Notes: generated from the letters alone by a model not told the origin. 64,000 bases of DNA from a virus (IMGVR_UViG_3300001598_000039:1-64000), one strand, 5' to 3'; shown: positions 10,830 through 42,263, counted from the stretch's first letter. Numbers and translations: made by a program.

Positions 10830-10902
10830 CGACGCGCGACAGGCCTTCCTCGGCTGCCAGCCAAGCCATCCTTCAACCTAGCCAGGCAGCTAGGCGACAG
10901 GC

Positions 10903-16270: not shown

Positions 16271-16299
16271 ATTATACAACAACTGGGCGTTGTTGTCAA
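16271..16299 (-). promoter_or_regulatory. Consensus sigma70 promoter TTGACA-N17-TATAAT; its spacer contains the inverted repeat CAACAAC-GCCCA-GTTGTTG, which is also the hairpin just downstream of the PARP gene
   Basis: Seen directly on the minus strand. Confidence 0.7.
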
Positions 16300-16332: not shown

Positions 16333-17562
16333 TCAGACCTTGAGCTCGACCAGGAAGTGGATCGTCGTCTGGTCTTCGCGATAGACCACCACCTCATCTT
16401 CACGGAGGTATGGGCCTTTATGGGCATGCACATGCGTTGTGCCAGGCTTGCGTTTTTGCAGCTTGTCCCATGTCATGCCGCTGCAGCTGCTGATCTCACT
16501 TCCGGTGCTGACGTTCAAGGCGCCCTTGTCTTCATCGACAGCGACGTCGAACACCGCCATCAGGCCGACATCAGACGTGCCACCTGACCAATACGAACCA
16601 CGAAGCGATGTGTAGTTGATGGACTTCGCCGCTTTTGGTGCAAAGTAAAGGCCCGCGCCCAACATTTTTCCAGTTACGTGGGCGTTGTTCTTGAGCAGCA
16701 GCCCATTCTTGATGATGTTCCACCAGTTCTCATTGCGCGAGCCGTGGAAGAACATCTTCGGCTCTTTGACGCCGTTGCTGCGGCAGAAGGCGTCAAACTT
16801 GTCCTGCGTCGTCTTGTTGATGATCCGCCAGGCCTGCTTGTAGCGAGAGCCAACCATGCCAAGGTGCTTGACGATCTGGTCTTTCTCCTGGTCGGTGACT
16901 TTGCGGAAGTCCAAGCCGAACTTCTCCAAGATCGTCTCTGTCTTTGACGAAGCGCCATCGCCGTTTGTCTTGGCCTTTGCAGCATTCGTCTCGAACTGCG
17001 TCTTGACGATGTTGAAGAGGTTCTGCTCGCGAGTCAAGATCGAAGGGATGTCGCTGTTGCTCTTGGCGAAGAACTTCGAGACGTCCGTCATCTTACGAGG
17101 CAGCGTACGGAAGAGCGTCATCAGCGTATCATTGAAGGACTTGTAGTCGCCGTCCTGCGTGTACAGCTTGTCGATCAGCTCTTGCGCCTTGTCGATCATG
17201 GTCTGCGTGATGTGGCCTTCATCAATGGTGTAGTTCTTCTTGATGACCTCATTGGCGTAGACACGCAGCTGCTTGACGAACTTGCGGACATCGACGTCTT
17301 GGATGTCGGCAAAGCCATCTGCACCGGTGCTGACTGAGCCATCGTCCTTCTTGACGAGCTCAGTCTGGTCGACGTAGCCTTTCTTCAGCTTGTTCTTCAG
17401 GATGCGGTCATACTCTTTGGCGTCATAGTGCTGGGTCGAAGGGTTCTGCCCGCCAATGCGCCCGTACTTCACCATGAAGCCGTTTCCGTCGGTGTCTGGC
17501 TGGATCTCATAGAACTTGTTGTTGTTGGCGCTTGTGACGCAGACTAAGTACTTGGCTTCCAT
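16333..17562 (-). CDS. Poly(ADP-ribose) polymerase-like protein (WGR domain plus PARP catalytic domain)
   Basis: N-terminal WGR (KYGRIGG); catalytic FFHGSRNENWWNIIKNGLL...GAGLYFAPKAAKSINYT. Confidence 0.8.
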   Translation of the reverse strand: MEAKYLVCVTSANNNKFYEIQPDTDGNGFMVKYGRIGGQNPSTQHYDAKEYDRILKNKLKKGYVDQTELVKKDDGSVSTGADGFADIQDVDVRKFVKQLRVYANEVIKKNYTIDEGHITQTMIDKAQELIDKLYTQDGDYKSFNDTLMTLFRTLPRKMTDVSKFFAKSNSDIPSILTREQNLFNIVKTQFETNAAKAKTNGDGASSKTETILEKFGLDFRKVTDQEKDQIVKHLGMVGSRYKQAWRIINKTTQDKFDAFCRSNGVKEPKMFFHGSRNENWWNIIKNGLLLKNNAHVTGKMLGAGLYFAPKAAKSINYTSLRGSYWSGGTSDVGLMAVFDVAVDEDKGALNVSTGSEISSCSGMTWDKLQKRKPGTTHVHAHKGPYLREDEVVVYREDQTTIHFLVELKV

Positions 17563-18426: not shown

Positions 18427-18453
18427 ATGGCATATTGTATCACGCGGGCGCGT

Positions 18454-18465
18454 AGAAGTAAATAG
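18454..18465 (+). promoter_or_regulatory. Class III late-like motif TAGAAGTAAATAG, 8 nt before ATG 18473
   Basis: Consensus match. Confidence 0.5.
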
Positions 18466-21751: not shown

Positions 21752-21782
21752 GACGCCATTATACCACAATCAGCAGTTCTTG

Positions 21783-22703
21783 TCAATAGGTGTTCATGGA
21801 GTAGTACTGCCTGTCATTGCAGTACAGCTCTCCGAGGCCGTCAAACTCGCCGACGCCATGGTACTTGCGCATCTGGTACGGCCAAAGCGACCTGTAGTCG
21901 AACTCTGTCCGGTCGCCATCTTTGAGGTATGCTCTAAGGCGCTCTCTGATCGCAGCCGGGTCATGGCTTGCAAGCAGGTCAAACTCCTCTTTCCGAACTT
22001 CGGTGGTGAGAGTCTGCGGGTTGACGATCAACTTGAAAGCCTCGCCATTCAGCACCTTGCAGCGACTGCTTGGCTTACGGTCAGGAACGTCTACACACTT
22101 GAGGTGGAAGAAGCCATGCACGGCGTCGCGATGCCTGCTGAGGCCAACACTTCCTTTGACAGGCACGCAGATGCTGAACTCCTTGTCTCCGTCGCTGAAC
22201 GTCAAGTCAATGTAGTCAGCGTACTCGCTCTCGTCGAACTTCAAGTCAACGCAGTTGAACTTCTTGTAGACTGGATCGCTGTCATCAAAGAAGAGCGGCC
22301 TGACTTCCATGATGAAGTCTCGTACGAGCTTGGACTTGAAGTCGTGCTCATCATACGCCCGATGCAGCTTGTCAAAGCGCTCAACTGACAGGCATCCGAC
22401 TTCTATGCTCTTGTTCACCTCACTGGCGCAAAGGCTCAAGTAGTGCTCATGCAAGCCGCGGAGAAGAGTCTCATGGCGTTCCAGCAAGTCAACGCACTTC
22501 CTAAGGTCGTCGATCCTGTCAAGTACTGAGACCTTGTCATCAAGCAGCTCAGACTCTGCTTTCCAGGTGTCGTGTATGAAGCCTTCACAAAGTCGGTTGA
22601 CCTTGCTTGAGGCAAGGCCATCTGCAGTCTTTGTCACCGCATCAGCTGCTTCACTGAACATCCTGTTGATAGACCCACAATCAATCACACGGCTGCTCGT
22701 CAT
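21783..22703 (-). CDS. Hypothetical protein (306 aa)
   Basis: GGAG RBS. Confidence 0.6.
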   Translation of the reverse strand: MTSSRVIDCGSINRMFSEAADAVTKTADGLASSKVNRLCEGFIHDTWKAESELLDDKVSVLDRIDDLRKCVDLLERHETLLRGLHEHYLSLCASEVNKSIEVGCLSVERFDKLHRAYDEHDFKSKLVRDFIMEVRPLFFDDSDPVYKKFNCVDLKFDESEYADYIDLTFSDGDKEFSICVPVKGSVGLSRHRDAVHGFFHLKCVDVPDRKPSSRCKVLNGEAFKLIVNPQTLTTEVRKEEFDLLASHDPAAIRERLRAYLKDGDRTEFDYRSLWPYQMRKYHGVGEFDGLGELYCNDRQYYSMNTY

Positions 22704-23067
22704 AGTTGTCTCCAGGCTTCATCCACTTGCAGTACCGCCCATGATGATGGCGGTCAAAGAACACAAACTTCCATCCTTGCTTGAACTCCATCACAGCTCG
22801 GACTGGACGATGCTCATTCTTGATCCCAGCCGCGCCAGCCACTATCCACCAGCTGTCAGTAAGCGGCTCAGGCTTGTAGGAGTCGTCACCGCTGACAGAC
22901 GCCATCATCAGCTTCTTGGCGTCGTACTTTGGCTTCACTTTGTCTGCCACAAACTCCACTTCTTGCAGGCGAGTTACGACTTTCCCGTTAGCATCAAGCT
23001 CACGGTATGTAAGCTTGACTGGAGGGAACTTCAAAGATGGTGATGTCATCTGCTCAGTACTCATCAT
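22681..23067 (-). CDS. Hypothetical protein (~128 aa)
   Basis: Start at MMSTEQ with AAGGGA RBS; overlaps the stop of the vWA gene. Confidence 0.5.
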   Translation of the reverse strand: MMSTEQMTSPSLKFPPVKLTYRELDANGKVVTRLQEVEFVADKVKPKYDAKKLMMASVSGDDSYKPEPLTDSWWIVAGAAGIKNEHRPVRAVMEFKQGWKFVFFDRHHHGRYCKWMKPGDNYDEQPCD

Positions 23068-24577
23068 CACGTCCCTTGCTAGGCTTGAAACGCAGCTTCT
23101 GTCCCCACTTGCAGAAGTTCTCATTGCCATCTGCAGTGAGAATCCACAAAACCGGGTAAGGAGGAGGATTTTCCGGCGCGTCTCCAAAACTGTCCGTCAT
23201 GTAGATGAAACAATCACTCACGATGCCATGCTGCTTGACGTAGTCGAATGGCGGGCAGAATGACGTTCCGCCAAAGCCTTTCCACTTGAAGGACTTGACG
23301 TCATCAATGGGGAACGGGTTGGTGTCATCATACTCCTTGTAGTCCGACACTTCCGCATCACACTGGATGAGATGGAGCTCATAGCCACCAAATGTCTTGA
23401 GGAGAGACACAAGCTCACTCATGAACTTTGGGATGTCTCCAGTACAAGAACCAGACGTGTCGATCGCAACGGTGACATTGATGCGCTCTTGACGGCGGGA
23501 CTGCAAGTACAGGCCATTGTAGACATGCCTGCGGCTTGGAGGAAGCCAGCGCCGAGACCCGTTGTAGCATGAGGTCACAAACTGCGATAGGACTTCCTGC
23601 CAGCGGATCTCCGGCTTCTTGAGGTTGTCCACAATCTGGGAGATATGGCTAGGAAGATGCCCCTGGATGCGTTCACACTGCTGAGCGGCAGAGATCGCTG
23701 CCTCTCGCACCTTCTCAACCGTCGACTCGCTGATGCCAGGCTGGTAGTCAGGGTCGAAGCCGACGTCGCCGTATTTGTCCTTGATCGGCCATTCACCTTC
23801 ACCATTGCCATTGCCGCTGCTGCCAGACTTCTTCTGCTTCTTCTTGCCGCCGCTCTTGTTGTCGCCATCCTGGTCATCTTGATCGTCTTGGCCATTGCCA
23901 TCCTGCTGCTTCTTGCGAGGGTCCTTCGACTCTTCGGAGACATGCTCCTTGTGCAGATGCTTGTCGAACTGGCCAGAAAGCTGCTTGTGGCTCTTCTTGC
24001 TCTGAGACTCGCTGCTTCCATCGCCGTCATCAGAGTCGTCCGACCCATCTGATCCGCCAGAACTTCCTTCATTTGACTTGCCTGACAAGCCGGCAGCCTT
24101 CATCATCTGCTTGCGGCCGCCCTTCTTCTGCTGCTGGAGAAGCCACTCATAGCACTCTTCTGCCGACTTTCCACGAAGCTCTGGAGGCTGCACGACGCCA
24201 TCTTCAGGCATCTTGAGCTTGTCTTGTGACAGGAGGTTGTTGACCTCCATGTCAGTTGCGATGTTGAAGATCTCCTGCTCACGGTTCTGCAAACGGGCAA
24301 AATGCATCAGGATGCAGTGCCAAGTCTCATGGGCAAGGACGAACTCCTGCTCGTCTGGCGTAAGGCCAGACCAGAAGGCGATGTCACAGTAGATGTTGGT
24401 GCCATCGGTGCAAGCCGTCCTGACTCGCATGTCTCGGACAGGAACAAGGTCCATCCGCATCAAGACGCCGCCGGTGAACGGGTACTTGAGAAGCAGCTTC
24501 TGCCGGTTGACTGCCAGCAGAGACCGCATCTTCGACTTCAGCTCTTTCAGCTCTTCAGCGCTAAGTTGTTTTGCCAT
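23054..24577 (-). CDS. Zn-metallopeptidase (HExxH: LAHETWHCILMH) fused to a vWA/MIDAS domain (DTSGS); DUF2201-like partner of MoxR
   Basis: Motifs read directly; start moved to MAKQLSAEEL with AAAGGACAA RBS; own TAGTACAAT promoter. Confidence 0.75.
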   Translation of the reverse strand: MAKQLSAEELKELKSKMRSLLAVNRQKLLLKYPFTGGVLMRMDLVPVRDMRVRTACTDGTNIYCDIAFWSGLTPDEQEFVLAHETWHCILMHFARLQNREQEIFNIATDMEVNNLLSQDKLKMPEDGVVQPPELRGKSAEECYEWLLQQQKKGGRKQMMKAAGLSGKSNEGSSGGSDGSDDSDDGDGSSESQSKKSHKQLSGQFDKHLHKEHVSEESKDPRKKQQDGNGQDDQDDQDGDNKSGGKKKQKKSGSSGNGNGEGEWPIKDKYGDVGFDPDYQPGISESTVEKVREAAISAAQQCERIQGHLPSHISQIVDNLKKPEIRWQEVLSQFVTSCYNGSRRWLPPSRRHVYNGLYLQSRRQERINVTVAIDTSGSCTGDIPKFMSELVSLLKTFGGYELHLIQCDAEVSDYKEYDDTNPFPIDDVKSFKWKGFGGTSFCPPFDYVKQHGIVSDCFIYMTDSFGDAPENPPPYPVLWILTADGNENFCKWGQKLRFKPSKGRDDEY

Positions 24578-24696
24578 AAAGCGGGTTGTCCTTTGATTGG
24601 TGTACGGTGCTATTGTACTACATGCAAGGCTAAATGTTAACCCGGCATGGCGCACTCGCGCCAGAGGCCGGGAGAACAACTACAAATCAGAGCCGC

Positions 24697-25845
24697 TTAG
24701 AAGCGGTAGCGCTGGCGGAGCGCCTTGCCATGGGCATCGGACCACTGCTGGTACATCTTGTGCTGGAAGAGGTACTCGCAGGCCTGGTCGCCAGGGAAGC
24801 TCTTCGTGCCCTGCATAGCAGCCATCATCGCCATCGACGCGAAGTCGGAGGAGAGCGCCATGCAGATGCGGTAGAAGCCATCAACGCGACGTGCCTGGTC
24901 ATCGTCATTCTCGCCGCGCCAGACGAGGTACGTCATGGCAGAGCAGAGGGCGTAGATTCGGTCAGGCTGTGTCGGGATGACGATCTTCGCCTTGGGGTCA
25001 GTCATCATCTGGAGCACCGAGCCGAAGTTCTTGTTGATCTTGTGGAACTCGACGAACTCAACCCCAGCACGGTTGCCGACAAGGCCATACACCAGCGAGC
25101 GGATGAGGCTTTCGTCAGAGCCATGGAAGATGTTCAGCATACGGCTGACGCGCTCCCAAGCGCGAGGCGTCGGCCAACCACGCTCCAAGTTCTCGCCTTC
25201 CTGGTGGAACAGGTAGTTCGGACGGAATGCGATGAAGCCGGTGACAGACGGGTGGATGTCGTTCTTCTGCGCCCAACGAGACCACTGCTCCCAGTTGGAC
25301 TCAAGCTCGACGTGCATGAAGCGGTTTGCAAGAGCCGCAGACATCGTGGTGGCGACCGCACGGTCTTCGACACGGTTGCCGGCGCCGACGATGTACCAGC
25401 CATCAGGGATCTTGTAGTTCTCACCAAGACGGCGGTCGAGGATGAGCTCATACGCAGCGACCTGCAGCGAACGGTCAGCGGCGGTGATCTCATCGAACAG
25501 GATGATGCCACGAGACTTAGGGTCACGAGGAAGGTCGCCAGTGATGAACCACTCGACGGACTTGTCCTCTTTGTTAGGGACAGGCAGTCCCTTGAGGTCA
25601 ACCGGCTCGCGCTGTGCCAAGCGGATGTCAATGAAGCCGATGCCAAGCTGCTGGGCGACCGACTTGATGACTGTCGACTTGCCGCAGCCGGGAGCTCCCC
25701 AGACCATCAGCGGCGGAATGGTAGCCGCATCTTCTGGATGCTCGGCCAAGGCGTTGCAGTTCATCTTCAGGATGAGGCCGAGCTGCTCAGCCCAGATGCA
25801 GTTGTGGTTGTCGATCGCGGTTGCGCTCTTCTCTGTCTTGCTCAT
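24697..25845 (-). CDS. MoxR-family AAA+ ATPase
   Basis: Walker A GAPGCGKST, Walker B ILFDEI, sensor region; MoxR/AAA_5-like. Confidence 0.8.
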   Translation of the reverse strand: MSKTEKSATAIDNHNCIWAEQLGLILKMNCNALAEHPEDAATIPPLMVWGAPGCGKSTVIKSVAQQLGIGFIDIRLAQREPVDLKGLPVPNKEDKSVEWFITGDLPRDPKSRGIILFDEITAADRSLQVAAYELILDRRLGENYKIPDGWYIVGAGNRVEDRAVATTMSAALANRFMHVELESNWEQWSRWAQKNDIHPSVTGFIAFRPNYLFHQEGENLERGWPTPRAWERVSRMLNIFHGSDESLIRSLVYGLVGNRAGVEFVEFHKINKNFGSVLQMMTDPKAKIVIPTQPDRIYALCSAMTYLVWRGENDDDQARRVDGFYRICMALSSDFASMAMMAAMQGTKSFPGDQACEYLFQHKMYQQWSDAHGKALRQRYRF

Positions 25846-25886
25846 AGTGTTCCTTGTTTGTAGTTGTTCTGTAGCTTGATGGAGAC

Positions 25887-25915
25887 ATTATACAACGTGC
25901 CGCGGTTCTTGTAAA
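25887..25915 (-). promoter_or_regulatory. Sigma70-like promoter TTTACA-N17-TATAAT for the MoxR gene, preceded by a terminator hairpin at 25919-25945
   Basis: Seen directly. Confidence 0.65.
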
Positions 25916-25972
25916 CTTAAAAGGCGCCGTCCTTCCGGAGGCGCCTCAATTGAGCTCAGCTCTAGCTTGTCC

Positions 25973-26236
25973 TTAGCGCGGTGGCAGCCAGATCTGGCAG
26001 CAGTTGACCTCATAGCCAAACTTCCTGGTCAAGAAGTTGTACACAAACGTCTCGACGACGTCATAGTAGTCAGCTTTGCCTTCCTGCGACCAGATTGCCT
26101 CCGGCAGGTCCAGCGTGAACTGTCGTGGAAGCTGGTCCGCGTACTCATGACGCCCACGGTAGGACCGGACCGGCGTCCCGTCGAAGGCGATGTTGGTGAT
26201 CAAGGCCTGATAGCCCTGTTCAGTGTCTGTCATCAT
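25973..26236 (-). CDS. Hypothetical protein (87 aa)
   Basis: AGGAGAGAGCA RBS; TGTACAATAT -10. Confidence 0.6.
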   Translation of the reverse strand: MMTDTEQGYQALITNIAFDGTPVRSYRGRHEYADQLPRQFTLDLPEAIWSQEGKADYYDVVETFVYNFLTRKFGYEVNCCQIWLPPR

Positions 26237-26304
26237 TGCTCTCTCCTGATGGAAAGTTGGCGATATGCCACGGACGCCCGCGGCTAGTTGATATTGTACA
26301 TGCC

Positions 26305-26898
26305 TCAGCCGATGTTCTTGACCCGGAACTTCTTGAAGAAGTCATTAGTCCGCAGGAACTTGAGCAAGTACTCGATCAGCTCTTGCTCAGAGACGATCTT
26401 GTAGTTCCATAAGTCAACGCCGACGTTCAGGTTCAAGACACGGTGCTCTTCGTCAATGGTTATGACCTTGCCAGAATGCCTGTGCCCATGGACATGGATG
26501 TCACCAACTTTGAATGTTCCAGCTGCCCTAGAGTCATAGGATGGGTAGTGTGACACCGAGACGTCAGGGAACAGCTTCCCAAGGCTTGTCCGCATGCTCT
26601 TGCACAGGCATGGCGTCTTGTTGTTCAGGTCGTGGTTGCCTTGCAGGTTGACGAATGTTGGCTTGATCTGCTTGATGTACTCTGCTGGGTTGACCTTCAT
26701 GCCTTCGACGCCGCGGTCATCGCCATACTGGCAGAAGTCGCCGACATGGATGATGATGTCTTCTTCCTTGGCGCGCTCATTGCAGCTCCTGACCAAGGCG
26801 GCGTTCATCTTCTCCACCGTCTTGAATGGGCGGTGGCTGTACTCGAGGATCTTGGACATACCAAGATGGAAGTCAGCTGTGAAGAAACGTCGTGCCAT
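26305..26898 (-). CDS. Calcineurin-like metallophosphoesterase
   Basis: GDFCQYGD, GNHD and HGH motifs; leaderless TGATACAAT ATGACCT ATG. Confidence 0.75.
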   Translation of the reverse strand: MARRFFTADFHLGMSKILEYSHRPFKTVEKMNAALVRSCNERAKEEDIIIHVGDFCQYGDDRGVEGMKVNPAEYIKQIKPTFVNLQGNHDLNNKTPCLCKSMRTSLGKLFPDVSVSHYPSYDSRAAGTFKVGDIHVHGHRHSGKVITIDEEHRVLNLNVGVDLWNYKIVSEQELIEYLLKFLRTNDFFKKFRVKNIG

Positions 26899-26911
26899 AG
26901 GTCATATTGTA

Positions 26912-28078
26912 TCACGCCTTGGAGCTGCTGTAAAACTCATCTGCCAGCTTCTTGTCTTTCGTTGAATCCACCAAGTTCTCCGGCTTGAGCGTCTTGTTGA
27001 GCTGCTCCAAAAGGCCTTTCTGCTCGGCGGTCAAGTTGGTCAACGGCTCAATTATGACTCTAGCCACTAGGTCGCCAACGCCTGAGGCACTCTTGATGCC
27101 GCCATAAGGTACTACAAGTGGATGCCCAGCGGTTGTGCCTGGGCTCATCTTGGCCTTCTTGTAGCCATACGCCGTAGGCACATCTACATCGCCGCCAAGC
27201 GATGCTAGCAGAGGCGATACATGCAAGACAGTCTGCAAGTCGTTGCCCGTTGTGCGCTTGAAGAGGCCAGACTCGTCTTCTCCTACGATGCAGACGATGT
27301 ACATGTTCCCATCGGCTCCTCCGCAAACTCCACACTCTCCTTTGCCGGCAAGCCTGAGGCGCGTTCCATCGGCTACTCCCTGTGGGATCTTGACTTCGAC
27401 ATCTTTACGGACTTTGAGGCGACGCTCTCCATTGCACTTCTTGCAGACATGCGCGCTGATTCCTGTTCCGCCGCAATGCCGGCATGTTGTGACTTGCTGC
27501 ATGAAGCCAAACGGCGTGCGCTGCTGAGAGACCTCTTGGCCAGACCCTCCACAATGAGGGCACTCTTCAAGCTTAGTCCCTTTCTCAATGCCAGTCCCGC
27601 CACAGCAGTCGCACGGCACAGTCGCACTGACTTCAAACTTCTTGGTGCAGCCATAGAGCATCTCTTTGAAGTTGATCTTCATGTGGAGCTGCATGTTCCG
27701 CCCATCTACTGGAGCATTGACATCTGGCATCTCCCGCTTAGGCTGCTCTCGATGCATTCCAAACGGGTCAAAGCCAAACCCTCTGAACTGCGATGCCTGG
27801 CGCCGCATGAAGTCGCGCAGGTCATCGTCATCCATTCCAAAGCCGTTTCCATGAGGCCCATCAAAGCCGAACTCATCGTACTGCTTCCGCTTCTCCGGGT
27901 CAGACAGCACTTCGTATGCCTCGCTGATGGCAGCAAACTTGTCTTTCGCAGCCGGGTCATCAGGATTGCGGTCAGGATGGTGCTTCATCGCGAGCTTGCG
28001 GTAGGCCTTTTTCAGGTCATCCGCACTCACGTCTTTGCTTACGCCAAGAGTCTTGTAGTAGTCTTCTTTCTGTGCCAT
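26912..28078 (-). CDS. dnaJ: DnaJ/Hsp40 co-chaperone (J domain with HPD, four CxxCxGxG zinc fingers, C-terminal domain)
   Basis: [13 protein letters not shown]...HPDRN; [32 protein letters not shown]. Confidence 0.85.
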
Positions 28079-28191
28079 GGCTTGCTTGCCCATTCAGTCT
28101 CAGTATGCCTATTCTACACCACCTGCCACCAAATGTTAAAGGCCGCCACCCGTAGGCAGTGGCCATCACCAACCACAAATTGGTCATTTCC

Positions 28192-29430
28192 TCACTTGGC
28201 AGCCGGCTTAGCGACTCCGTTGAGCTTCTCCAGCGTCATCGTGTTGATGAGCATGTTCAGCGGATTGGATGCAGCCTGACCATCGGCTCCACCAAGAGTC
28301 ATCATCGTCGGGAGCTTGAGGCCAGCAATGCCCTTGCCGAGGTTCTCCCACTTGGCCTTGGCAATTCCAAGCTCGAGGTCAAGCTGGGCACGCTGCAACT
28401 CAGTAATGGCGCCGCTCTTCTCAATGGCGATCTTCTTAGCCTCAGCCGTAGCGATCTGCTGTTCCGCTTTCAGCTTGATTGCCTCAAGGTTAGCCGCTTC
28501 AGTCTGCTTCTGGATCTCCGCGACCTCACGGAGCTTCTCCGCTTCGATCTTGGCGACTTCCTTCTGCTTCTGGACTTCAATCGAGGCGACTTCCTTCTCC
28601 TTAGCGGCCTTGATCAGCATCTCCTGCTTCTCAAGCTCCTGGACAGTCACTTTCTTCTGGGCAGCGATCTCCGCGAGCTTCTTCTCCTTTTCAGCAGCCT
28701 GGACAGCATTTGCCATTTCCGCCTCGGCCTTTCCTCGCTGCTCAGCGATCTGCATCTGGTAGTTCGCTTCGACTTTCACCTTCTCAGCTTCGAGCTTCTG
28801 CTGCTCAGCAAGAGCAAGGCGCTTGGCAAGGTCAGCTTCTTTCTGCTTGGCGAACTGCACCTGGGTCTCATTGTCGTACCGCGGCAGTCCAGCACAAGTG
28901 AAGCTCACAACATCGATGCCTTCAGCAAGCAGGTTAGGCTCATGGACGATCGCATCATGGATCTTCTTGGCGAACTCTGGGAACTTCTCCACAGACTCCG
29001 ACGGCGTGTACTGGGAAGCAATGCACTGGGCGACAGTCTGGAGTGATGTCCTCACCTTTGCCCAGATCTTCTCATCATCGCCTTCGACCTGCTGGTGGAG
29101 CCTGATGATCTGCTCGTCATTGGTCGAGTCGATCCGGTAGCCGATCTGGCAGTTGAGCCGCGCAGTCGTCTTGTTGCTGAACTGCATCTCGATGGCGTCG
29201 CGCTCTCCCTCATTGCAGATCTCCACACTGGCTTTCGGGTACTCCCAAATGCGCGGCCAGGGCCTAGCATACCAGCCACCATCGCGACGGACCTCAATGC
29301 CGCCATCGACATTCTGGATGATCTGAAGGTTCTGGACGTCGTTGACATGAAGCATCTTGAAGAACCCAATAAGCGCGAGGATCCCACAAAGGATCACCGT
29401 GATGAACACTCCTGCGAATCTGTTAGTCAT
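28192..29430 (-). CDS. SPFH/band-7 (stomatin/prohibitin-like) membrane protein with a long coiled-coil
   Basis: N-terminal TM helix, SPFH core, KAEAE repeat-rich coiled coil. Confidence 0.7.
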   Translation of the reverse strand: MTNRFAGVFITVILCGILALIGFFKMLHVNDVQNLQIIQNVDGGIEVRRDGGWYARPWPRIWEYPKASVEICNEGERDAIEMQFSNKTTARLNCQIGYRIDSTNDEQIIRLHQQVEGDDEKIWAKVRTSLQTVAQCIASQYTPSESVEKFPEFAKKIHDAIVHEPNLLAEGIDVVSFTCAGLPRYDNETQVQFAKQKEADLAKRLALAEQQKLEAEKVKVEANYQMQIAEQRGKAEAEMANAVQAAEKEKKLAEIAAQKKVTVQELEKQEMLIKAAKEKEVASIEVQKQKEVAKIEAEKLREVAEIQKQTEAANLEAIKLKAEQQIATAEAKKIAIEKSGAITELQRAQLDLELGIAKAKWENLGKGIAGLKLPTMMTLGGADGQAASNPLNMLINTMTLEKLNGVAKPAAK

Positions 29431-29472
29431 AGTCTCTGTTGTCTTTCTGTTTGGTGTGGTTGGTTAGTTTGG

Positions 29473-29622
29473 TCAGTTGCTGCCCTTTTCTGCCTTGCTG
29501 GTGTCCTTGCCGTGGATGCGGAAGAACTCCTTTATGCCAAGGTAGATCACCTGGGCAGCGAAATAGATGAATCCGGCGCTGAATACGGCCAACGCCAAGC
29601 CGATGATGATGCGTGCTAGCAT
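29473..29622 (-). CDS. 49-aa membrane peptide
   Basis: Internal ATG with AAGGA RBS. Confidence 0.4.
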   Translation of the reverse strand: MLARIIIGLALAVFSAGFIYFAAQVIYLGIKEFFRIHGKDTSKAEKGSN

Positions 29623-29623
29623 G

Positions 29624-29794
29624 TCAGTCCTTGTGGTTTGTGGTGTAGATAGGCTTCGGAGTTGGAGTGACATCTTGGTAGCCCATCCTGTTGAAGAGCT
29701 TGTTGAGCTCCTTCAAGTCCTTCGCATAGATGAAGTCGCCATTTGGCATCTCGCAGCAGCAATGGGTCTTCTCCTCTGTCACTATAACTCTCAT
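29624..29794 (-). CDS. 56-aa peptide with a CCC motif, leaderless
   Basis: TATACAAT ... ATG; not in track. Confidence 0.3.
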   Translation of the reverse strand: MRVIVTEEKTHCCCEMPNGDFIYAKDLKELNKLFNRMGYQDVTPTPKPIYTTNHKD

Positions 29795-29826
29795 TGGTTC
29801 CATTGTATACCTCTTTAGAGCAGATG

Positions 29827-30270
29827 TTAAGCCAGAACTGAGGCCAGGTACTTCGATGCGGCGCTCATGTCCATGGACCCTCGGAATGGCGCCAAGGTCT
29901 TCATGGCTTGGCCCATGTTCTTCTTCACCTTCTCGATGCCGGCATCCTGGAGGGCCTTCTGGATTGCGGCCTCCATCTCTTCCTGCGTCATCTGCTTCGG
30001 AAGGTATGTCTTGAGGACTTCAAGCTCAGCCTTCTCCTTTGAGCTCAAGTCGGTCCGCCCAGCAGCATCAAACTGGCTGATGCTGTCTTGATGGCTCTTC
30101 ACAGCCTTCTGCACCGCCTTGATGCAGGCTTCAGACGTCACCGGCTTGCCAGCATTGATGGTTTGGTTCTTGATGTCGGACATCAGAGCGCGCAAGCAGT
30201 CCCGCTTGACCACGTCTTTGGCAAGCATGGCCGTCTTGATGTCGGATTGGATCTGGTCGTATAGTTCCAT
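29827..30270 (-). CDS. GatB/YqeY-domain protein
   Basis: Overall similarity to the YqeY family; TTAACT-N17-TATAAT promoter and AGGAGAGAACA RBS. Confidence 0.65.
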   Translation of the reverse strand: MELYDQIQSDIKTAMLAKDVVKRDCLRALMSDIKNQTINAGKPVTSEACIKAVQKAVKSHQDSISQFDAAGRTDLSSKEKAELEVLKTYLPKQMTQEEMEAAIQKALQDAGIEKVKKNMGQAMKTLAPFRGSMDMSAASKYLASVLA

Positions 30271-30486
30271 TGTTCTCTCCTATGAGGACATTATAATATG
30301 GAAGCAAGTAGAAGTTAAGCCGCCTAGCTGACAGGCGGCTCCTCGATGCCATCATTCTTTAGCCTCTGTCTGGTTGCTCAGCAAAGAGGGTGGCGCGCTA
30401 GTCCTTCCTGCTGCCGCACGCCGTAGCAGCACATGTTTCGTCATGGATGGTTAGTTTGGTTTGCAGTTTGGCATCTCAAATCTAGG

Positions 30487-32013
30487 TCAGGCCGCGAGGA
30501 CCTCAGAGACCTTTGCGTAGCGCGGCGTGTCAAGCATCTCCTTGAGCACCTGCCAGGGGTCAGTGCTGTTCGACATGACCATCTTGAGGACGTTCTGCGA
30601 GTAGCCGCTGACAAGGGCGACTCCAGCTTCGTTCTGCGTCAGAGGGATCGTGCCGGTCCGCGAAGCGACATTCCAATAGATCAGGCGAGGAAAAGCATAG
30701 CCAGCGGCCTTGAACTTACGGCCAATCTCCTTGAAGAGCGCGGTCTCATTTGCGCTGTAGCGGCCAGCTCCATAGCTGTAGGTGCCCTGATTGAACTCCA
30801 TATCGGAGACGATGAGCACATCAGGGATGTCTTCTTGCTTGAGCTGGTTGTCAACAGCAGTCTTCAAGATGAGGTCAAACACCGCGGCGATGTTGGTACT
30901 GCCGCCCCAATCCATGCGCTCGACCGTGTTGAGCTTCTGTGCAAGCGTCTTGCAGTTCTTGAGGCTGACAAGAGCAGGGCTGTCACTGAAAGTCATGACC
31001 TTGTCCGCGAACGGGCCAGTCAGGTGCTCAGACGTATAGATGCCAAGCGCGATCGAGACATCAATTGCACGCATCCTCGACTTGTTGTCGACCTGTGTCC
31101 ACATCGATCCAGACACATCAGCAACCGTAAGGAGGTTGCGCTCGAGGTTGACAGCTGGAAGCGCCTTCCAGAGAGCTTCGAGCGTCGCATCAGGGCGAGA
31201 CATTCCAGGAGTGCTGTACTTGTAGACGATGTCCGTAGGGAAGTTCGCTGCAGAGTTGATCTTGGCTTCGCCGGACTCGACCTTGTCAAGGAACTTCTGG
31301 CGACCCGCAGGGTCATGCTTCAGGAACGCATCCTTGTAGCGGATGTTGGCCTTTGAAGGGACGCTCTGGTAGTTGATGTCAGTCCACTTGTTGGCAGACA
31401 TCTTCTTCTCCACGACGTCGATCTTCGCGCGGAGCGAAGAGAGCGCCTTGCGGTAGTTCTTAGGCTGCATGCCGAACGCCTTGCAGAGCCTGTTTGCAAG
31501 CGCCCTAGTGGTATCGGACGAGGTGTTGATCGAAGGCATCCACTTGGCCAGCAGCGAGATGCTAGGCTTGCCATCAGCGAGGTCAGCAATGTCCTGGTGG
31601 AACTGCTTGCTGATGAACTGGATGACGTCATCTTCAAGCGAAGTGTCCATAAGGCAGAAGAGGTCATCATAGCGGCCGTACTCTGCAAGAAGAGGAATGA
31701 GCTTCAGCGCGTCTTCCTTGTCATACTGTGCCAGCCACTTGAACATGATGCGGAACGACCGGCGCTCACCAAGACCACCACGGACGTCACGGAGCATGAA
31801 CATCCAGCGGATAGCGTACTCTTTGTTCTCCGCGAACGCTTCTGCGAACTTGTGCTCGATCTCCTTCTCACCGAGCTTGCGCAGTGACGAGACTGCGAAG
31901 TTGAGGTCAAGCAGCTTCTTGCCTGAAGTTGCGTAGCCTACTGCGCCATTCTCCGTGATAGAGACTTCTGCTGCGAGCGTATTGTCCAGTGCCTTAGCGA
32001 ATGTGTCGTTCAT
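30487..32013 (-). CDS. vWA-domain protein of the TROVE/Ro60-like DUF2828 type
   Basis: MIDAS DVSGSM; N-terminal helical repeats; start moved to MNDTFAKAL with AAGGAA RBS and a 70-nt leader from GGTGTACAATAC. Confidence 0.55.
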   Translation of the reverse strand: MNDTFAKALDNTLAAEVSITENGAVGYATSGKKLLDLNFAVSSLRKLGEKEIEHKFAEAFAENKEYAIRWMFMLRDVRGGLGERRSFRIMFKWLAQYDKEDALKLIPLLAEYGRYDDLFCLMDTSLEDDVIQFISKQFHQDIADLADGKPSISLLAKWMPSINTSSDTTRALANRLCKAFGMQPKNYRKALSSLRAKIDVVEKKMSANKWTDINYQSVPSKANIRYKDAFLKHDPAGRQKFLDKVESGEAKINSAANFPTDIVYKYSTPGMSRPDATLEALWKALPAVNLERNLLTVADVSGSMWTQVDNKSRMRAIDVSIALGIYTSEHLTGPFADKVMTFSDSPALVSLKNCKTLAQKLNTVERMDWGGSTNIAAVFDLILKTAVDNQLKQEDIPDVLIVSDMEFNQGTYSYGAGRYSANETALFKEIGRKFKAAGYAFPRLIYWNVASRTGTIPLTQNEAGVALVSGYSQNVLKMVMSNSTDPWQVLKEMLDTPRYAKVSEVLAA

Positions 32014-32119
32014 ATCTGTTTCCTTTGTGCACGACGCGCTTGTTTTCCAGTGGTAGTGGGATTGTGTTCGTTGCTGGGTGCGTCGTATGGTTGTATTGTA
32101 CACCAGAAGCCAATTGAAG

Positions 32120-32467
32120 TTAAGCCAGCTTTCCAGAATGGAGGAGCTTAAGGGCGGAGTTGACTTTCGATGCGATGCCGTCCGCATTCTTGGCGTTCAG
32201 GTATGTGTAGATGACGTGCTTCCGGATGTCAGCATCAAGAGGTATCATGGCGCCATCAACATAGTTGCGCATGTCTAGGATCTCAAAGTAGAAGTACTGG
32301 CCGCCGCGCTTCTTGTTCACATACTTGCCGTACTCGATGTAGGGTGACATCTTGTCCTTCCCTCTGAAGCTGATGATGCTGACGTCGTCGATGTCGTCGT
32401 TCCCAACATTGGTCGGCTTGTAGTTGAGCTTCTTCAAGAAGTCTAGCTTGTCAATTGGTTCTGCCAT
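32120..32467 (-). CDS. Hypothetical protein (115 aa), leaderless
   Basis: GCGTACAAT ACTATAGTT ATG. Confidence 0.6.
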   Translation of the reverse strand: MAEPIDKLDFLKKLNYKPTNVGNDDIDDVSIISFRGKDKMSPYIEYGKYVNKKRGGQYFYFEILDMRNYVDGAMIPLDADIRKHVIYTYLNAKNADGIASKVNSALKLLHSGKLA

Positions 32468-33147: not shown

Positions 33148-34731
33148 ATGAACGAGTCGATCCTAGACAAGCCGCAAGACGGCCTTTGCCCAGAGATATG
33201 GGAAAAACAGCCTGATGGCAGTTGGACAATGCATGATGCCGTCCGCCAGAAGCTCATCGCTTTGGCAGTAAGCGTCCTTGAGTCTGCGCATCTGCCAACA
33301 CACAACATCATCTTGCGCTTGACCGGGTCGCTCACATCGAACTCCTACACACCGGTATCTGATGTTGATGTACACATTAGCGGCTTCAGAGTCAGGGAGT
33401 TCCAAGAGATGACATAGAAGCGCATCAGCGAAGTCCTAGATGCGATGAAAGCCGCTAGCCATGACGATGTCTTCATTGGCCAGCACCCGATTGAGCTCTA
33501 CTACCAAGTGAGCGAGTTCCAAGACTTCATGTCGGTTGGATGCTATGACCTACTTGAAGGACGCTGGGAAGTTGGCCCGGAGATGACCGACAAGGAGTTT
33601 GACCCGTACAGTGAGTACTTCGACGTCGACATGCGCGGAGTCAAGTCCATCATGGCGGACGTCCGCAACACTATCCTCCGGCCGTATGAGAAGCTGGTCG
33701 CCTACAAGAACAGCTCAGACCAAGACTTCAGAGATGAGCTTGCAGTCAAGATCACTGCAGACCTAGAAGAGGCGGTCAAGCTGTTCGAGTAGCTGCGGAA
33801 CTACAGGAAGGTGTACAGCAGCCCTAAGAGCAGAGAAGAAGCGCTGAAGCGCCGGAGCTCGATGAAATGGAAGGTAGCTGACTCAACATTCAAGCTGATG
33901 GACAAGTTCGGCTACCTTGGAATCATGCGGGCCTACAAGCAGGCCCTTAACTCAGGCATCCAGCCGGACCAGTTCCCAAAGTTGGCCGAGTGGTTGCTTG
34001 GAAAGATGAAAGAGACAACTATGAAAGCACTTAACGACAGTGAGTACAGCATAAGCCTTGATGAGTCACAAGTCGACGAAAGCGGCGACACCATCAAAGC
34101 AGCTGTGCTTGCGGCGCTTCTTGCCATCCCTGGCGTATGCGGAGCTGAGCAGATCAAGCCGGCTCTCAACAGCAAGCAGCCTCTAGCAGCAGTTGAGCAA
34201 GTCCGTGCCAAAGCAAGCCCTAAGGCATCCTATAGCGGCTACTCATACTCCCATGCCACCAACATTGTTGCGTTGACCCTCTTTTGGGAAGCCCAGAACC
34301 AAGGCAAAGAAGGAATTGACCGTGTTGCGTCAGTCCTCTTGAACCGCTGCGACGGAGATGAGAAGAAGCTCCCTCTCGCTTGCCTCAAGAACGCGTACAG
34401 CTCAAAGGCAAAGCGCTACGTCTGGCAGTTCAGCTGCTGGGATGAGAAGGGGATCCACAAGATCCAGCGATCGACGCAGCGTCCAGGCAACTACCGCATC
34501 TTCATCCCGCGTGAGGTGAAAGCTGGAAAGCAAGCCTCAATCGACGTCTGGAAGTACTGCAATGAAGTCGCAGTCAAGCTCTGCGACGGCAAGTTCAAGA
34601 CGCTCGGAGACTGGACTGAGTACTACAACCCCGCTAGAGTGACACCAACTTGGGCTGACGAGCTGACTTCGGTCGAGACCTTCGGCAACCACAAGTTTGG
34701 CATCCTCAAGCGCCATGCGGCTTACACCTGA
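33148..34731 (+). CDS. One reading frame interrupted by two TAG codons (33415-33417, 33790-33792). N-terminal minimal nucleotidyltransferase whose catalytic domain spans the first TAG, plus a C-terminal SleB-like cell-wall hydrolase
   Basis: GS...SDVDVHI before the TAG and HDDVFIGQ third-carboxylate strand after it; the downstream segments lack ATG and RBS; Hydrolase_2 signature TLFWEAQNQGKEGIDRVASVLLNR...QFSCW. Confidence 0.55.
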
Positions 34732-37249: not shown

Positions 37250-38032
37250 TCAGCTTGCGACTGAGAAGGCGAACTCCTTCTTCAGCTTAGGCAGCATGTC
37301 ACTAAGCACAAACTTTGTCCGCGAGTCTCGAGATGGGACTTTGAACTTCGATCCAGAGACATTGGCGTCATGCCTGTAGTAGATGAAGGCGCCAGGCCAG
37401 TTGAACTGTTTGAACTTGATGGCACATCCATAAGCGGCATTCACTTTCTTCAGGTGGTCAGCGACTTTGACGTGCGACATGGAGTATGGGTTGATGAAAC
37501 TAGTGTAAGGCAAGAAGCTGCTGTCTGCAATGAGTGACTGGAACAGTGCGATGTGGCCAACTGATCCGTAACTGTTCATGTAGTCATAGAGCTCTTTTGT
37601 CTTGGCGACGTAGACAAAGCCTGTAGTGTACCCGCATGCACCAAAGCCTTTCACTTCAGCAGCTTCAGCTTGCGCTTCAGCCGCAGCGCCACTCCAGATG
37701 AAGTCATCATCGTCGATGCGGGTTGCGATCATCTTTGACCCTGGCTGCCATCTTGCCTTCAGCTCTTGCTCAAGGCAGCTGTACCTGATGACGGATGCCT
37801 TGAATGGCATTGGAGCAAGAGCCTTCTGCAGAGCTTGGACTCGGTCTAGCGCCAGCCAATCATGAACCGCAAGAAGCAGCTCAAAGCTCTTGTTGGTCTG
37901 GTTGGCTAACGATGGAAGCAAGTTTGACTTAAGCAGCTGCAGGCGCTGCTTGTACATCTGGTCTGAGAGCAATGTGCCGACGTCGAATCCAAATGGCGTG
38001 CACAGGAACCTAGTTATGATGATGTGCTTCAT
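37250..38032 (-). CDS. Putative glycosyltransferase-like protein (260 aa)
   Basis: Gene context only; ATGA coupling to the GT2 gene. Confidence 0.4.
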   Translation of the reverse strand: MKHIIITRFLCTPFGFDVGTLLSDQMYKQRLQLLKSNLLPSLANQTNKSFELLLAVHDWLALDRVQALQKALAPMPFKASVIRYSCLEQELKARWQPGSKMIATRIDDDDFIWSGAAAEAQAEAAEVKGFGACGYTTGFVYVAKTKELYDYMNSYGSVGHIALFQSLIADSSFLPYTSFINPYSMSHVKVADHLKKVNAAYGCAIKFKQFNWPGAFIYYRHDANVSGSKFKVPSRDSRTKFVLSDMLPKLKKEFAFSVAS

Positions 38033-39546
38033 AGGTAGAAGTTGTTCTGCTTCAGGAGCTCAACCTTAGACTCGATGATCGCCAGCCTCTGCGCTTCAAC
38101 ACATGGCGTCTCATAGGACTCATGCATCAAGTCAGCGATGAGGTAGTAGACTGCTGCTTGGCGTGCTGTGTCGATCGCTGCATGTTGGCAGCTGTTCGGG
38201 TTGTCTCCAATGGTGTAGACGAAGAGCGGCTCATCCATGACAGCAAGCGACTTGCACTTGTCGTATGTCCTGAGGCTCCAGATGACGTCGTTGAACCTGA
38301 TGCGGTCTGGGATGAACTGCGGGCAAAGCTCCGTCTTAACACAACTAGTCGCCGGTTGGCATAGACGGACAACATCCTTGAGCGCATGCCCGTCAAATTT
38401 GGCAAGGCGCCGCACTCCATCACGGACATCATATCGGGCGCACTTCACCAAGTCAGGCGAACCGGATGCGATGATGAGCTTATGCAGATGCTCTAGAGCA
38501 GTGTCCGAGACATAGTAGTCGTCGCTGTCCAAGAACAACGTGTAGGCCGCTCCAGGAACATGCCTAAGTGCAACATTGCGTGCGCCTCCTCCATAGGCTT
38601 TCTTGTCTAGGAGCTCGTACTCGACTTTAGTTGGCCAGTTGGCTGCAATCTTCTTCAGCAACTCCGCCGTGCCATCAGTAGAAGCGTCGTCGACTAGCAC
38701 AACTTTGAAGTGCTTGAACGTCTGGCTCATGATGCTGTCTATGCACCGTTCCAGAAAGGCTTCGCTGTTGAAGGTCGGTATGATGATCCTGAAGAATGGA
38801 GAGTCATCACCAACCGCATACGGGACATTCAGCTTCCAGCCAACATAGGACTCAAGGTATCTGGCGCGCGACTGCATGCTCCTGTTGTCTGTGCAGAGGC
38901 CTCCATTTCTGCTGAACCTCAGGTTCTCCAGCAGCTTGACCCCGTCATTGGCGACTCTGACTAGCGGGACATTGTTCTCTTGCGCCCAAACAGCGGTTAT
39001 CTCGTCATCCCCAAAGTTCTTTGGCCTAGCAAGATACAATGACTTCCTCAAGCCAATCTCCTTAGGGCAGCACATCGCGACTCCCATGCCAACACGATGA
39101 CAAGGAAGGTCAGTGTCGTAGTCTAGCTGGAACAAGTGGACGGTTCGGTTCAAGAAGCTGATCCTGCCATTGGTGATGCCGTTGTAGACATGGCCATGGT
39201 ATGAGCAGATCGCCTTCCTCCCGTACTTGTCGACTTTGGCCTTCAAGCTTGCAATGTAGTTCGGCGGGTAGTCAATGTCGTCGTCCACAGTCGCGTAGTA
39301 GCCATCAAAGTCGCCGGCCCAGTACATCTTGTTGTTGCATCCAAGGTCTCTGATGCCAGTCTTTGCGTTCGCCAGGACAGTGATGATCTTCTTTGACTTA
39401 GGGAGCTCAGGAGGCACTTCGTCATAGCCATTCAGGCAGATGCAGAGCCTGTCGCACTGAGGCAAGAGCTCAGCTACAGCGTTCAGCAGTCCTTGCTTGC
39501 GCTGAGGTTGAGATGCGATCGCGACTGTGACTTCATTAGTGGCCAT
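38029..39546 (-). CDS. Two-domain glycosyltransferase (C-terminal GT2 domain)
   Basis: IIIPTFNSEAFLERCIDSIMSQTF...VVLVDDASTDGT. Confidence 0.75.
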   Translation of the reverse strand: MATNEVTVAIASQPQRKQGLLNAVAELLPQCDRLCICLNGYDEVPPELPKSKKIITVLANAKTGIRDLGCNNKMYWAGDFDGYYATVDDDIDYPPNYIASLKAKVDKYGRKAICSYHGHVYNGITNGRISFLNRTVHLFQLDYDTDLPCHRVGMGVAMCCPKEIGLRKSLYLARPKNFGDDEITAVWAQENNVPLVRVANDGVKLLENLRFSRNGGLCTDNRSMQSRARYLESYVGWKLNVPYAVGDDSPFFRIIIPTFNSEAFLERCIDSIMSQTFKHFKVVLVDDASTDGTAELLKKIAANWPTKVEYELLDKKAYGGGARNVALRHVPGAAYTLFLDSDDYYVSDTALEHLHKLIIASGSPDLVKCARYDVRDGVRRLAKFDGHALKDVVRLCQPATSCVKTELCPQFIPDRIRFNDVIWSLRTYDKCKSLAVMDEPLFVYTIGDNPNSCQHAAIDTARQAAVYYLIADLMHESYETPCVEAQRLAIIESKVELLKQNNFYL

Positions 39547-41184: not shown

Positions 41185-41185
41185 G

Positions 41186-41521
41186 TCAGAACCTTATCAA
41201 CACATCTTGCGGCTTCAAGTCTCGCATCGAGCTTGCAAGCCATTCCTCAAGCTTCTCTTTCGACCCAAACCGACGTATGTCATTCTTCCGCGTCTCGCGT
41301 CGTTCCGCTGCAACCGTTCGGACAAGCCATCCAAGAGCATGCGGACTTTGTGCTTGCCATTCGCCAACGTTCGTCTCAAAGTAGCAGACAAGCGCATTTG
41401 GGTCGCACGTCTTCAGGTAGTCAATGAGCTTCTGCACAGTCAGCATGTTCTTGACACACCAAGCACGTTCTTCAGCCTTAGTCCTGAATGGCCAGCCGCG
41501 AGGCTTCTTGGCATCGCTCAT
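41186..41521 (-). CDS. Hypothetical protein (111 aa)
   Basis: Track ORF within the operon. Confidence 0.5.
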   Translation of the reverse strand: MSDAKKPRGWPFRTKAEERAWCVKNMLTVQKLIDYLKTCDPNALVCYFETNVGEWQAQSPHALGWLVRTVAAERRETRKNDIRRFGSKEKLEEWLASSMRDLKPQDVLIRF

Positions 41522-42249: not shown

Positions 42250-42263
42250 GGCCATATTGTACA

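Follow-up and report, generated by a model that had tools for sequence, protein, structure and literature searches.

Twelve co-oriented genes of a viral genome probably form several separately transcribed accessory modules rather than one anti-defence system

Does a compact run of twelve co-oriented genes in a virus encode one multi-component system or several that work apart? The question is raised by positions 21783..32013 of the viral sequence IMGVR_UViG_3300001598_000039:1-64000, the whole 64,000-nt stretch of which was analysed and is called the window here. In the order of transcription, the locus encodes a DUF2828 protein resembling Ro60/TROVE proteins, a YqeY-like protein, two micro-proteins (p59 and p66), an SPFH/Band-7-like membrane protein, a DnaJ co-chaperone, a metallophosphoesterase, the small protein p87, a MoxR-class AAA+ ATPase, a fusion of a zinc metallopeptidase with a vWA domain, and the products of unk128 and unk306. 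An earlier note on this DNA had proposed that these genes, together with a WGR-PARP encoded nearby, constitute a single counter-defence or host-takeover system. ORF (open reading frame) calling recovered all twelve genes, every one on the minus strand and exactly within 21783..32013, as the note had described. The motifs are also intact: Walker A and B, HETWH, two DxSxS metal-ion-dependent adhesion sites (MIDAS), HPD, the zinc motifs, the phosphoesterase motifs and the PARP H-Y-E triad. Twelve co-oriented genes are ordinary in a phage and are no signal by themselves. With a probability of roughly 0.65, the locus represents not one system but an early/middle-type accessory region of at least four independent modules, transcribed separately. 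All are of types reported before from large phages. The modules would be the MoxR/peptidase-vWA pair, the Ro60-like DUF2828 protein, DnaJ, and a small membrane protein with the SPFH protein, and they most likely serve independently in protein remodelling, RNA surveillance, co-chaperoning and membrane scaffolding. Domains, motifs, folds, promoters, terminators and neighbourhood statistics were read directly, and every biochemical activity and target discussed below is inferred.

The first line of evidence is the arrangement of transcription signals. The window contains 32 matches to the sigma-70-like pattern TTNACW-N17-TANAAT, where 0.08 would be expected. A match of this kind serves seven genes of the cluster, and an extended -10 serves p87, which indicates about eight transcription units, not twelve. 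The pattern search returned no promoter for the SPFH gene, p66, unk128 or unk306, so that the earlier statement that each gene has its own promoter holds for eight genes and fails for four. At four junctions, those after DUF2828, SPFH, p87 and MoxR, a GC-rich hairpin with a T-tract runs into or abuts the next -35. The T-tract forms or directly abuts the TT of that -35 (TTAACA or TTTACA), resulting in compact terminator-promoter cassettes. Specifically, and all on the minus strand, the terminator-like hairpin after DUF2828 (30317..30341) extends its T-tract into the -35 of the YqeY promoter (30290..30318), and that after SPFH (28138..28164) abuts the DnaJ promoter (28111..28139). The hairpin after p87 (25919..25947) is followed by the MoxR promoter (25887..25915), and that after MoxR (24639..24672) precedes the peptidase-vWA promoter (24612..24640). 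The DUF2828 promoter, TTAACT-17-TACAAT (32095..32123, minus strand), leaves a leader of about 80 nt. At 11 of the 32 promoter-like sites, the ATG of a long ORF lies 6-7 nt past the -10 hexamer, as at 26906..26934, 29802..29830, 21758..21786, 18434..18462, 16271..16299 and 63465..63493. This spacing implies leaderless mRNAs for many genes, predicted to include those of the phosphoesterase, served by the first of these sites, and p59, served by the second, where a second ATG lies 7 nt past the -10 (both minus strand).

The same signals help to place the cluster within the viral programme. Twenty near-identical sites of the form cTTAAG-TTAACA-N11-TTTGTTATAAT fill 1..10937 on both strands, each before a short ORF. 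The promoter-like sites of the first 11 kb diverge, lying on the minus strand below ~3.6 kb and on the plus strand above ~4.0 kb, and 1..10937 looks like a dense early-gene region. A looser promoter class serves 16-32 kb. No TTNACW-N17-TANAAT site was found on the plus strand at 44-63 kb, where ORFs of the 1,000-aa (amino acid) class with weak resemblance to tail proteins are located, and for this reason the cluster is considered to share the promoter class of the early-type 1-11 kb region and not that of the structural genes. Overall, the sequence of the cluster looks like a row of separately controlled cassettes of early/middle type.

The second line of evidence is gene neighbourhood, and it bears most directly on the proposal that all twelve products and the PARP act as a single counter-defence or host-takeover system, for example on NAD+/ADP-ribose signalling. 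The genes are indeed co-oriented and contiguous, and MoxR-vWA pairs, TROVE proteins and ADP-ribosyltransferases recur in conflict systems (PMC7159879). Nevertheless, about eight promoters and four terminators divide the cluster, and its components separate both in relatives and in other lineages. Among the compared loci and contigs, which bear L-numbers, sub-blocks of the cluster are kept and the whole is not. The note had named failed domain assignments or a lack of synteny in relatives as grounds for refutation; the assignments pass, and synteny is retained by the sub-blocks. The WGR-PARP itself is real. The gene (16333..17562, minus strand) lies outside the cluster and encodes 409 aa with matches to PF00644 (68 bits), PF05406 (32 bits) and phrog_23333 and with the FHGS, GLYF and DEVVVY motifs that make up the H-Y-E triad. 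As the earlier note had stated, it is close by, at 4.2 kb, but it is separated from the cluster by some nine unrelated genes, of which one is on the opposite strand, and no link between PARP and the cluster is conserved across the compared loci. PARPs have been described in jumbo phages (PMC7824862). A WGR-PARP is present in only 12 phage records and is unlinked to YqeY where both occur; one viral locus, L084, has a PARP ~8 kb from DUF2828. Comparison of the cluster proteins with PADLOC-DB 2.0 returned nothing significant: all matches are at the level of the P-loop or of fragments and score no more than 20 bits, and both matches of the MoxR-like ATPase fall far below significance. Inside the cluster, the analysis found no partner that would consume or sense NAD. 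Synteny largely refutes the single-system view, which now appears very improbable.

The first of the proposed modules is the MoxR/peptidase-vWA pair. The ATPase (24697..25845, minus strand, 382 aa) matches Pfam AAA_5 at 29.7 bits (cut-off 22) and AAA_3 at 25.9 bits, just under the cut-off of 27, and scores 290 bits against phrog_1297. Its Walker A motif, GAPGCGKST, is at aa 50 and its Walker B motif, IILFDE, at aa 114. The nearest solved folds to its structural model (predicted local distance difference test, pLDDT, 75) are NorQ, CHU_0153 and CbbQ, with TM-scores of only 0.23-0.38, and the sequence profile finds its best matches in the AAA modules of midasin. The three solved folds all belong to the MoxR class, and the MoxR call of the earlier note is probably right. 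Profile hidden Markov model searches agree with the calls of an HExxH-vWA protein (DUF2201), a metallophosphoesterase, a full-length DnaJ, a YqeY protein and a WGR-PARP. The partner of the ATPase (23054..24577, minus strand, 507 aa) matches Pfam DUF2201_N at 122 bits, the DUF2201 vWA domain at 63 bits and phrog_1314 at 289 bits. It has an HETWH peptidase motif and a DTSGS MIDAS, and a Gly/Lys/Ser/Asp-rich linker of ~110 aa joins its two halves.

Conservation of the pair was examined in 71 IMG/VR MoxR loci, which came from alignment-based scans, a single-sequence scan of IMG/VR having matched nothing, and in 80 MoxR loci of bacterial genomes (L173-L252). A peptidase-vWA gene follows MoxR on the same strand in 60 of the viral and 72 of the bacterial loci. 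None of the other cluster genes was found near MoxR in any of the 80 bacterial loci. The genes upstream of bacterial MoxR are homologous neither among themselves nor with any part of the window, and in some cases neighbours such as DnaB, FtsA, FtsZ and Pol III genes mark the context as clearly chromosomal. A conserved third gene for the pair was also considered and rejected because none is present in the 151 related loci. The MoxR ATPase and the peptidase-vWA protein are thus a self-contained two-gene unit that also exists in bacterial chromosomes. The literature search found no functional studies of DUF2201.

The relationships of the pair point away from cultured phages. Relatives of the ATPase are present in 845 phage records, with at most 37% identity in cultured phages. 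The closest homologues (55-66%) are from ruminant and gut metagenome-assembled genomes (MAGs) of Lentisphaerota (Victivallales) and Kiritimatiellae, and the next (46-50%) are on the chromosomes of cultured Halomonas, Marinobacter and Marinospirillum. In a neighbour-joining tree computed without bootstrap, the present copy is sister to a bacterial clade and lies inside viral diversity. These relationships suggest a phage of Lentisphaerota or Kiritimatiellae that exchanged the pair with its hosts. Among the MAGs of Victivallales, Lentisphaeria and Kiritimatiellae that hold the nearest MoxR/DUF2201 pairs, several have two to four copies of the pair on different contigs (e.g., RGIG3456 and SIG94), and because of these multiple copies some may be phage contigs binned into the MAGs. 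The closest relative of all, L172, with a MoxR protein 82% identical, has the order phosphoesterase-p87-MoxR-vWA-DUF3310 and lacks unk128, unk306 and two further genes.

By analogy, the pair most likely works like NorQ-NorD or CbbQ-CbbO. The ATPase hexamer would grip the MIDAS face of the vWA domain and remodel a bound client at the expense of ATP, as deduced from NorQ-NorD, CbbQ-CbbO and RavA-ViaA, and remodelling would present the client to the fused HExxH peptidase or switch the peptidase on. A different role follows from the 2021 jumbo-phage survey of Iyer, Anantharaman, Krishnan, Burroughs and Aravind, who observed a MoxR and metallopeptidase-vWA pair in group 2.2 jumbo phages and proposed for exactly this domain architecture that it serves the virion (PMC7824862). 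The pair and DnaJ would then act in the folding, assembly and proteolytic maturation of structural proteins, a role compatible with independent modules. Jumbo phages have large structural proteomes, and the window encodes proteins of more than 1,000 aa with weak tail-like matches. Additionally, the MoxR-vWA pair of the Acidianus two-tailed virus reportedly functions in virion assembly. On the other hand, bacterial chromosomes commonly carry this pair outside any phage context, and in the window it sits among non-structural accessory genes and carries the early-type promoter class, not that of the structural block. Virion maturation by the pair is possible, and an assembly role for the pair and DnaJ together is somewhat unlikely. 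Because the pair is abundant on bacterial chromosomes and its promoter is of the non-structural class, general protein remodelling or an action on the host is somewhat likelier.

The DUF2828 gene would form a second module. The protein (30487..32013, minus strand, 508 aa from MNDTF) matches Pfam DUF2828 and the DUF7788 vWA domain at 131 and 176 bits, VWA_2 also being returned, as well as phrog_850, annotated as an RNA-binding protein, and it has a DVSGS MIDAS motif. In its AlphaFold model (pLDDT 83), a helical-repeat ring is followed by a C-terminal MIDAS vWA domain, the architecture of Ro60. The best PDB folds found by Foldseek over ~500 columns are the Ro60 of Thermus phage phiLo (9kop, E 4e-9; 9l5y, E 4e-8) and Deinococcus Rsr (2nvo, E 4e-5). 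The sequence profile reaches phiLo Ro60 only at a marginal E of 0.06, and Pfam TROVE gave no match. Thus the TROVE-like assignment of the earlier note stands at the level of fold, while by sequence the protein belongs to DUF2828/DUF7788. Based on the model, the protein would be a Ro60-like ring. The literature search found no functional studies of DUF2828.

What surrounds this gene elsewhere was determined from 80 IMG/VR loci (L020-L099), with neighbours counted within 10 kb. MoxR, the vWA-peptidase, DnaJ, SPFH and YqeY are near none of the 80 viral DUF2828 genes, a phosphoesterase is near two, and a PARP is near one. By comparison, 50 of the 80 have a tRNA gene no farther than 1 kb away and 70 no farther than 3 kb, whereas at the 1-kb limit five of the 71 MoxR loci, used as controls, have one. 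DUF2828 is also located in or beside the tRNA arrays of Klebsiella phage KP2025, Stenotrophomonas phage DLP_6 and Bacillus phage Nate (L017, L018 and L019). This linkage suggests a Ro60-like role centred on tRNA or tRNA-like RNA. In Thermus, the phage Ro60 binds phage Y-like RNAs and host PNPase and tempers PNPase (PMC12135203). By analogy, the DUF2828 protein would probably bind tRNA-like or damaged small RNAs and modulate host exoribonucleases, with the phosphoesterase, through RNA end-healing, and the tRNA-binding-type domain of YqeY as possible helpers. In its own lineage, DUF2828 is repeatedly found beside phosphoesterase, RNA ligase and HAD_SAK_2 genes (L001, L015, L016, L107 and L171), and TROVE proteins have been reported with RNA-repair enzymes in jumbo phages (PMC7824862). 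The leader of the gene (32031..32086, minus strand) could fold into a 7-bp stem, ACGACGC/GCGTCGT, around an A/C-rich loop. At the corresponding place (~1990..2070), L016 has GAGGCGC/GCGCCTC, with compensatory changes, and in these two sequences the loop words CAGCAAC, ACGAAC and GAAAACAA are shared. The stem was not found in L171, L014 or L015, and the hairpin is treated as unproven.

Several points weigh against a set of independent modules. Foremost, the blocks recur near each other in permuted order within the lineage: L107 has the order MoxR-vWA-phosphoesterase-p87-DUF2828, L016 has DnaJ-phosphoesterase-p95-DUF2828, L014 has MoxR-vWA and, farther on, DUF2828, and L012 has SPFH and, farther on, MoxR-vWA. 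Functional coupling could explain this recurrence as well as common descent. The promoters and terminators that divide the cluster are pattern matches only. The SPFH assignment, discussed below, is indirect and derived from the sequences of homologues. The jumbo-phage survey proposes virion assembly for the MoxR pair and DnaJ, not remodelling of host proteins or other clients (PMC7824862). Finally, a mechanism of the Ro60 type lacks its RNA partner here, no Y-like RNA or tRNA having been found in the window. ARAGORN detected no tRNA or tmRNA (transfer-messenger RNA) in the window, Rfam returned nothing at the gathering score and nothing at E<=1 in 21-33.5 kb, and the intergenic region downstream of DUF2828 has no more structure than shuffled sequences (z=-0.25).

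The permuted blocks raise the question of whether part of the cluster is coupled in this lineage alone. In such a case, the MoxR/peptidase-vWA pair, the phosphoesterase with its small partner, the Ro60-like protein and perhaps DnaJ would make up a loose island for RNA and protein quality control, in which MoxR might extend its remodelling to the vWA domain of the Ro60-like protein. The blocks adjoin in several permutations (in the window, L172, L107, L016, L171 and L014), some kind of metallophosphoesterase is encoded no more than two genes away from DUF2828 in L001, L015, L016, L107 and L171, and both DUF2201 and DUF2828 end in MIDAS vWA domains, the canonical client interface of MoxR. However, these contigs are all related, so the observations are not independent and the shared neighbourhoods may be inherited, not functional. 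Outside the family, MoxR accompanies DUF2828 at none of the 80 DUF2828 loci and DUF2828 accompanies MoxR at one of the 71 viral MoxR loci, the bacterial MoxR-DUF2201 pairs never have DUF2828 nearby (80 loci), and each block of the window has promoters and terminators of its own. Partial coupling is consequently unlikely. A bolder form of it, in which MoxR serves both vWA clients and, with the phosphoesterase, DnaJ and YqeY, provides an ATP-gated quality-control island that shields phage tRNA or mRNA from host RNA-targeting defences, would draw on the two MIDAS-bearing candidates and on the adjoining of the blocks in at least five related contigs; it is quite doubtful. Independent modules remain the preferred reading, in line with the jumbo-phage survey, which treats the parts as separate chaperone and RNA-repair adaptations (PMC7824862).

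DnaJ and the SPFH protein would be the two remaining modules. The type I DnaJ co-chaperone (26912..28093, minus strand, 393 aa) matches Pfam DnaJ (96 bits), DnaJ_CXXCXGXG (48 bits) and DnaJ_C (90 bits) and possesses HPD and four Cys-rich zinc motifs. The NCBIfam model DnaJ_bact scores 336 bits, below its equivalog cut-off of 377, and for the other proteins NCBIfam contributed no further assignment. Few phage records, mostly of megaphages, have a full-length DnaJ, and its sporadic presence in jumbo phages has been noted (PMC7824862). The protein would recruit host DnaK to fold the large phage proteome.

The SPFH/Band-7-like protein (28192..29430, minus strand, 412 aa, without its own promoter) has an N-terminal membrane helix and a long charged segment rich in Ala, Glu and Lys that is read as a coiled coil. 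It has no Pfam match even at E<=10, and the PDB sequence search was also negative. Fourteen of its 23 homologues, which are 60-74% identical, match Band_7 (PF01145) with a best E of 1e-8, and one homologue is named HflC in its source. The SPFH call of the earlier note thus depends on these homologues and the membrane helix, not on profile matches of the protein itself. No match was found in cultured phage records. Directly upstream, p66 (29473..29622, minus strand) encodes a putative single-pass membrane protein, probably of 49 aa from MLARIII, and its homologues lie directly upstream of SPFH in four of five relatives (L001, L011, L012 and L013). Together, p66 and the SPFH protein would form a scaffold in the host membrane. 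The neighbours of the p66-SPFH block vary among tRNA arrays, NAD-salvage genes and RNA ligases. In the 281-kb relative L013, a NadR-like gene (CTP_transf+NUDIX), an NAD synthase, PTH2 and a gene of the isochorismatase/nicotinamidase type directly precede p66-SPFH (6361..9997); this is a candidate NAD-salvage set and is absent from the present stretch. In L011 (599..7141), 15 tRNA genes and a tmRNA with the tag GNEYRCAA lie a few kb upstream of p66-SPFH, and two RNA ligase genes lie downstream.

The remaining genes of the cluster belong less clearly to any module. The calcineurin-like metallophosphoesterase (26305..26898, minus strand, 197 aa) matches Metallophos_2 at 29 bits, Metallophos at 23 bits and phrog_547, with DxH, GD, GNHD and HGH motifs at aa 9, 53, 87 and 133-139. 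Its homologues adjoin DUF2828 in L016, L107 and L171 and p87-MoxR in L172. On its 3' side, p87 (25973..26236, minus strand, 87 aa) has homologues in the same position in L172 (54%) and L107 (43%). A family relationship to the ~95-aa protein between phosphoesterase and DUF2828 in L016 and L171 was rejected, as the two are not homologous. The YqeY/GatB-C-like protein (29827..30270, minus strand, 147 aa) matches phrog_1460 and, over its full length, PF09424 (125 bits, profile positions 2-141 of 143). YqeY is found in only 31 phage records and was rejected as a conserved neighbour of DUF2828 because the two are ~55 kb apart in the Bacillus phages that have both. The orphan micro-protein p59 (29624..29794, minus strand), probably of 56 aa from the second ATG, has no homologue in any fetched locus. 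At the other end of the cluster, unk128 (22681..23067, minus strand) overlaps the end of the vWA gene at a site that is not retained in L172, and unk306 (21783..22703, minus strand), which has no family match, is partly homologous to a gene of L100 that is located 6.7 kb upstream of MoxR. Searches of Pfam, PHROG and PADLOC gave no match for p87, unk128 or unk306. As a whole, the genes are plausibly host-interaction or auxiliary phage genes.

The source appears to be an uncultivated phage. No megablast match to the DNA of cultured phages was found. Homologues of SPFH and DUF2828 with 50-75% identity come from contigs in IMG/VR, ENA and Logan, the longest of 281-292 kb, and proteins of the window itself occur on Logan and JGI contigs. 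From these sequences, the source is probably a jumbo phage of gut or rumen Lentisphaerota or Kiritimatiellae. Elsewhere in the window, 37250..44850 and 56669..63458 encode RmlD- and RmlC-like dTDP-sugar enzymes, a weak NAD-kinase-like match and several glycosyltransferases (GT2, GT11 and DUF4422). Another metallophosphoesterase is encoded at 45115..46089, and 61488..63458 encodes a DNA ligase of the NAD-dependent type. Two adjacent short ORFs on the plus strand (33148..33417 and 33445..33792), the first with a GS...SDVDV nucleotidyltransferase-like motif and an NTP_transf_2 match below threshold (E=0.065), may be the halves of a split gene. Both have homologues, again side by side, in L101, L104 and L106, at 5-8 kb downstream of MoxR; of these contigs, L104 and L106 are 414-434 kb long. 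In L014, a 414-aa gene (2613..3857) has an in-frame stop under code 11, which may reflect stop-codon recoding or a gene-call artefact.

The candidate multi-component anti-defence system does not hold up, and the locus earns no priority on that ground. What it offers is an uncultivated gut or rumen jumbo-phage lineage added to the carriers of the MoxR/peptidase-vWA pair, with sequence relationships that point to gene exchange with the presumed hosts. It also provides fold-level evidence that the very large DUF2828 family, with more than 7,000 database matches, is Ro60-like. The location of phage DUF2828 genes at tRNA arrays is a clear genomic signal, and a function centred on tRNA or Y RNA is now testable in cultivable phages. 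This linkage and the architecture of the compact terminator-promoter cassettes, with their many apparently leaderless genes, are the most useful by-products of the analysis.

Comparison with known systems supports the view that the parts are familiar. The MoxR-vWA 'ternary' conflict systems of Kaur, Burroughs, Iyer and Aravind (2020) require a third component (PMC7159879). The present pair resembles them in its MoxR-vWA core and in the fusion of the vWA protein to an enzymatic domain, but it is phage-borne, and no VMAP, inactive STAND NTPase, FtsH or beta-propeller was detected as a third component, VMAP being judged by the lack of a conserved third gene. The resemblance to NorQ-NorD, CbbQ-CbbO and RavA-ViaA lies in the combination of an AAA+ hexamer with a MIDAS-bearing vWA adaptor, and the structure of NorQ was solved in complex with the NorD vWA domain. 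In contrast, identity to NorQ, CHU_0153 and CbbQ is 13-18% and structural similarity is as low as given above, partners of the NorD, CbbO and ViaA type have no peptidase, and nothing here corresponds to their clients (NO reductase, Rubisco and others). The SPFH protein has in common with the HflK/C, QmcA and YqiK types an N-terminal anchor, SPFH matches in close homologues, a charged segment and an upstream small membrane protein. It differs in that it falls below every Pfam threshold, p66 has no NfeD match, and cultured phage records lack it. Unlike the Ro60/Rsr-Y RNA ribonucleoproteins, the DUF2828 protein is assigned by Pfam to DUF2828/DUF7788 and not to TROVE, and no Y-like RNA, tRNA or Rfam family was found with it in the window. 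Like phiLo Ro60, it is phage-encoded, predicted to have helical repeats capped by a MIDAS vWA domain, and associated genomically with tRNA arrays. The closest parallel is the pair of the group 2.2 jumbo phages, where the gene after that of a MoxR-class ATPase likewise encodes a vWA protein whose N-terminal part is an HExxH peptidase. Compared with the pairs of cultured phages, the present copy is nearest to genes of Lentisphaerota and Kiritimatiellae MAGs, and its partner has the extra low-complexity linker of ~110 aa. The parts are therefore of kinds already known, and it is the phage lineage that carries them that is new.

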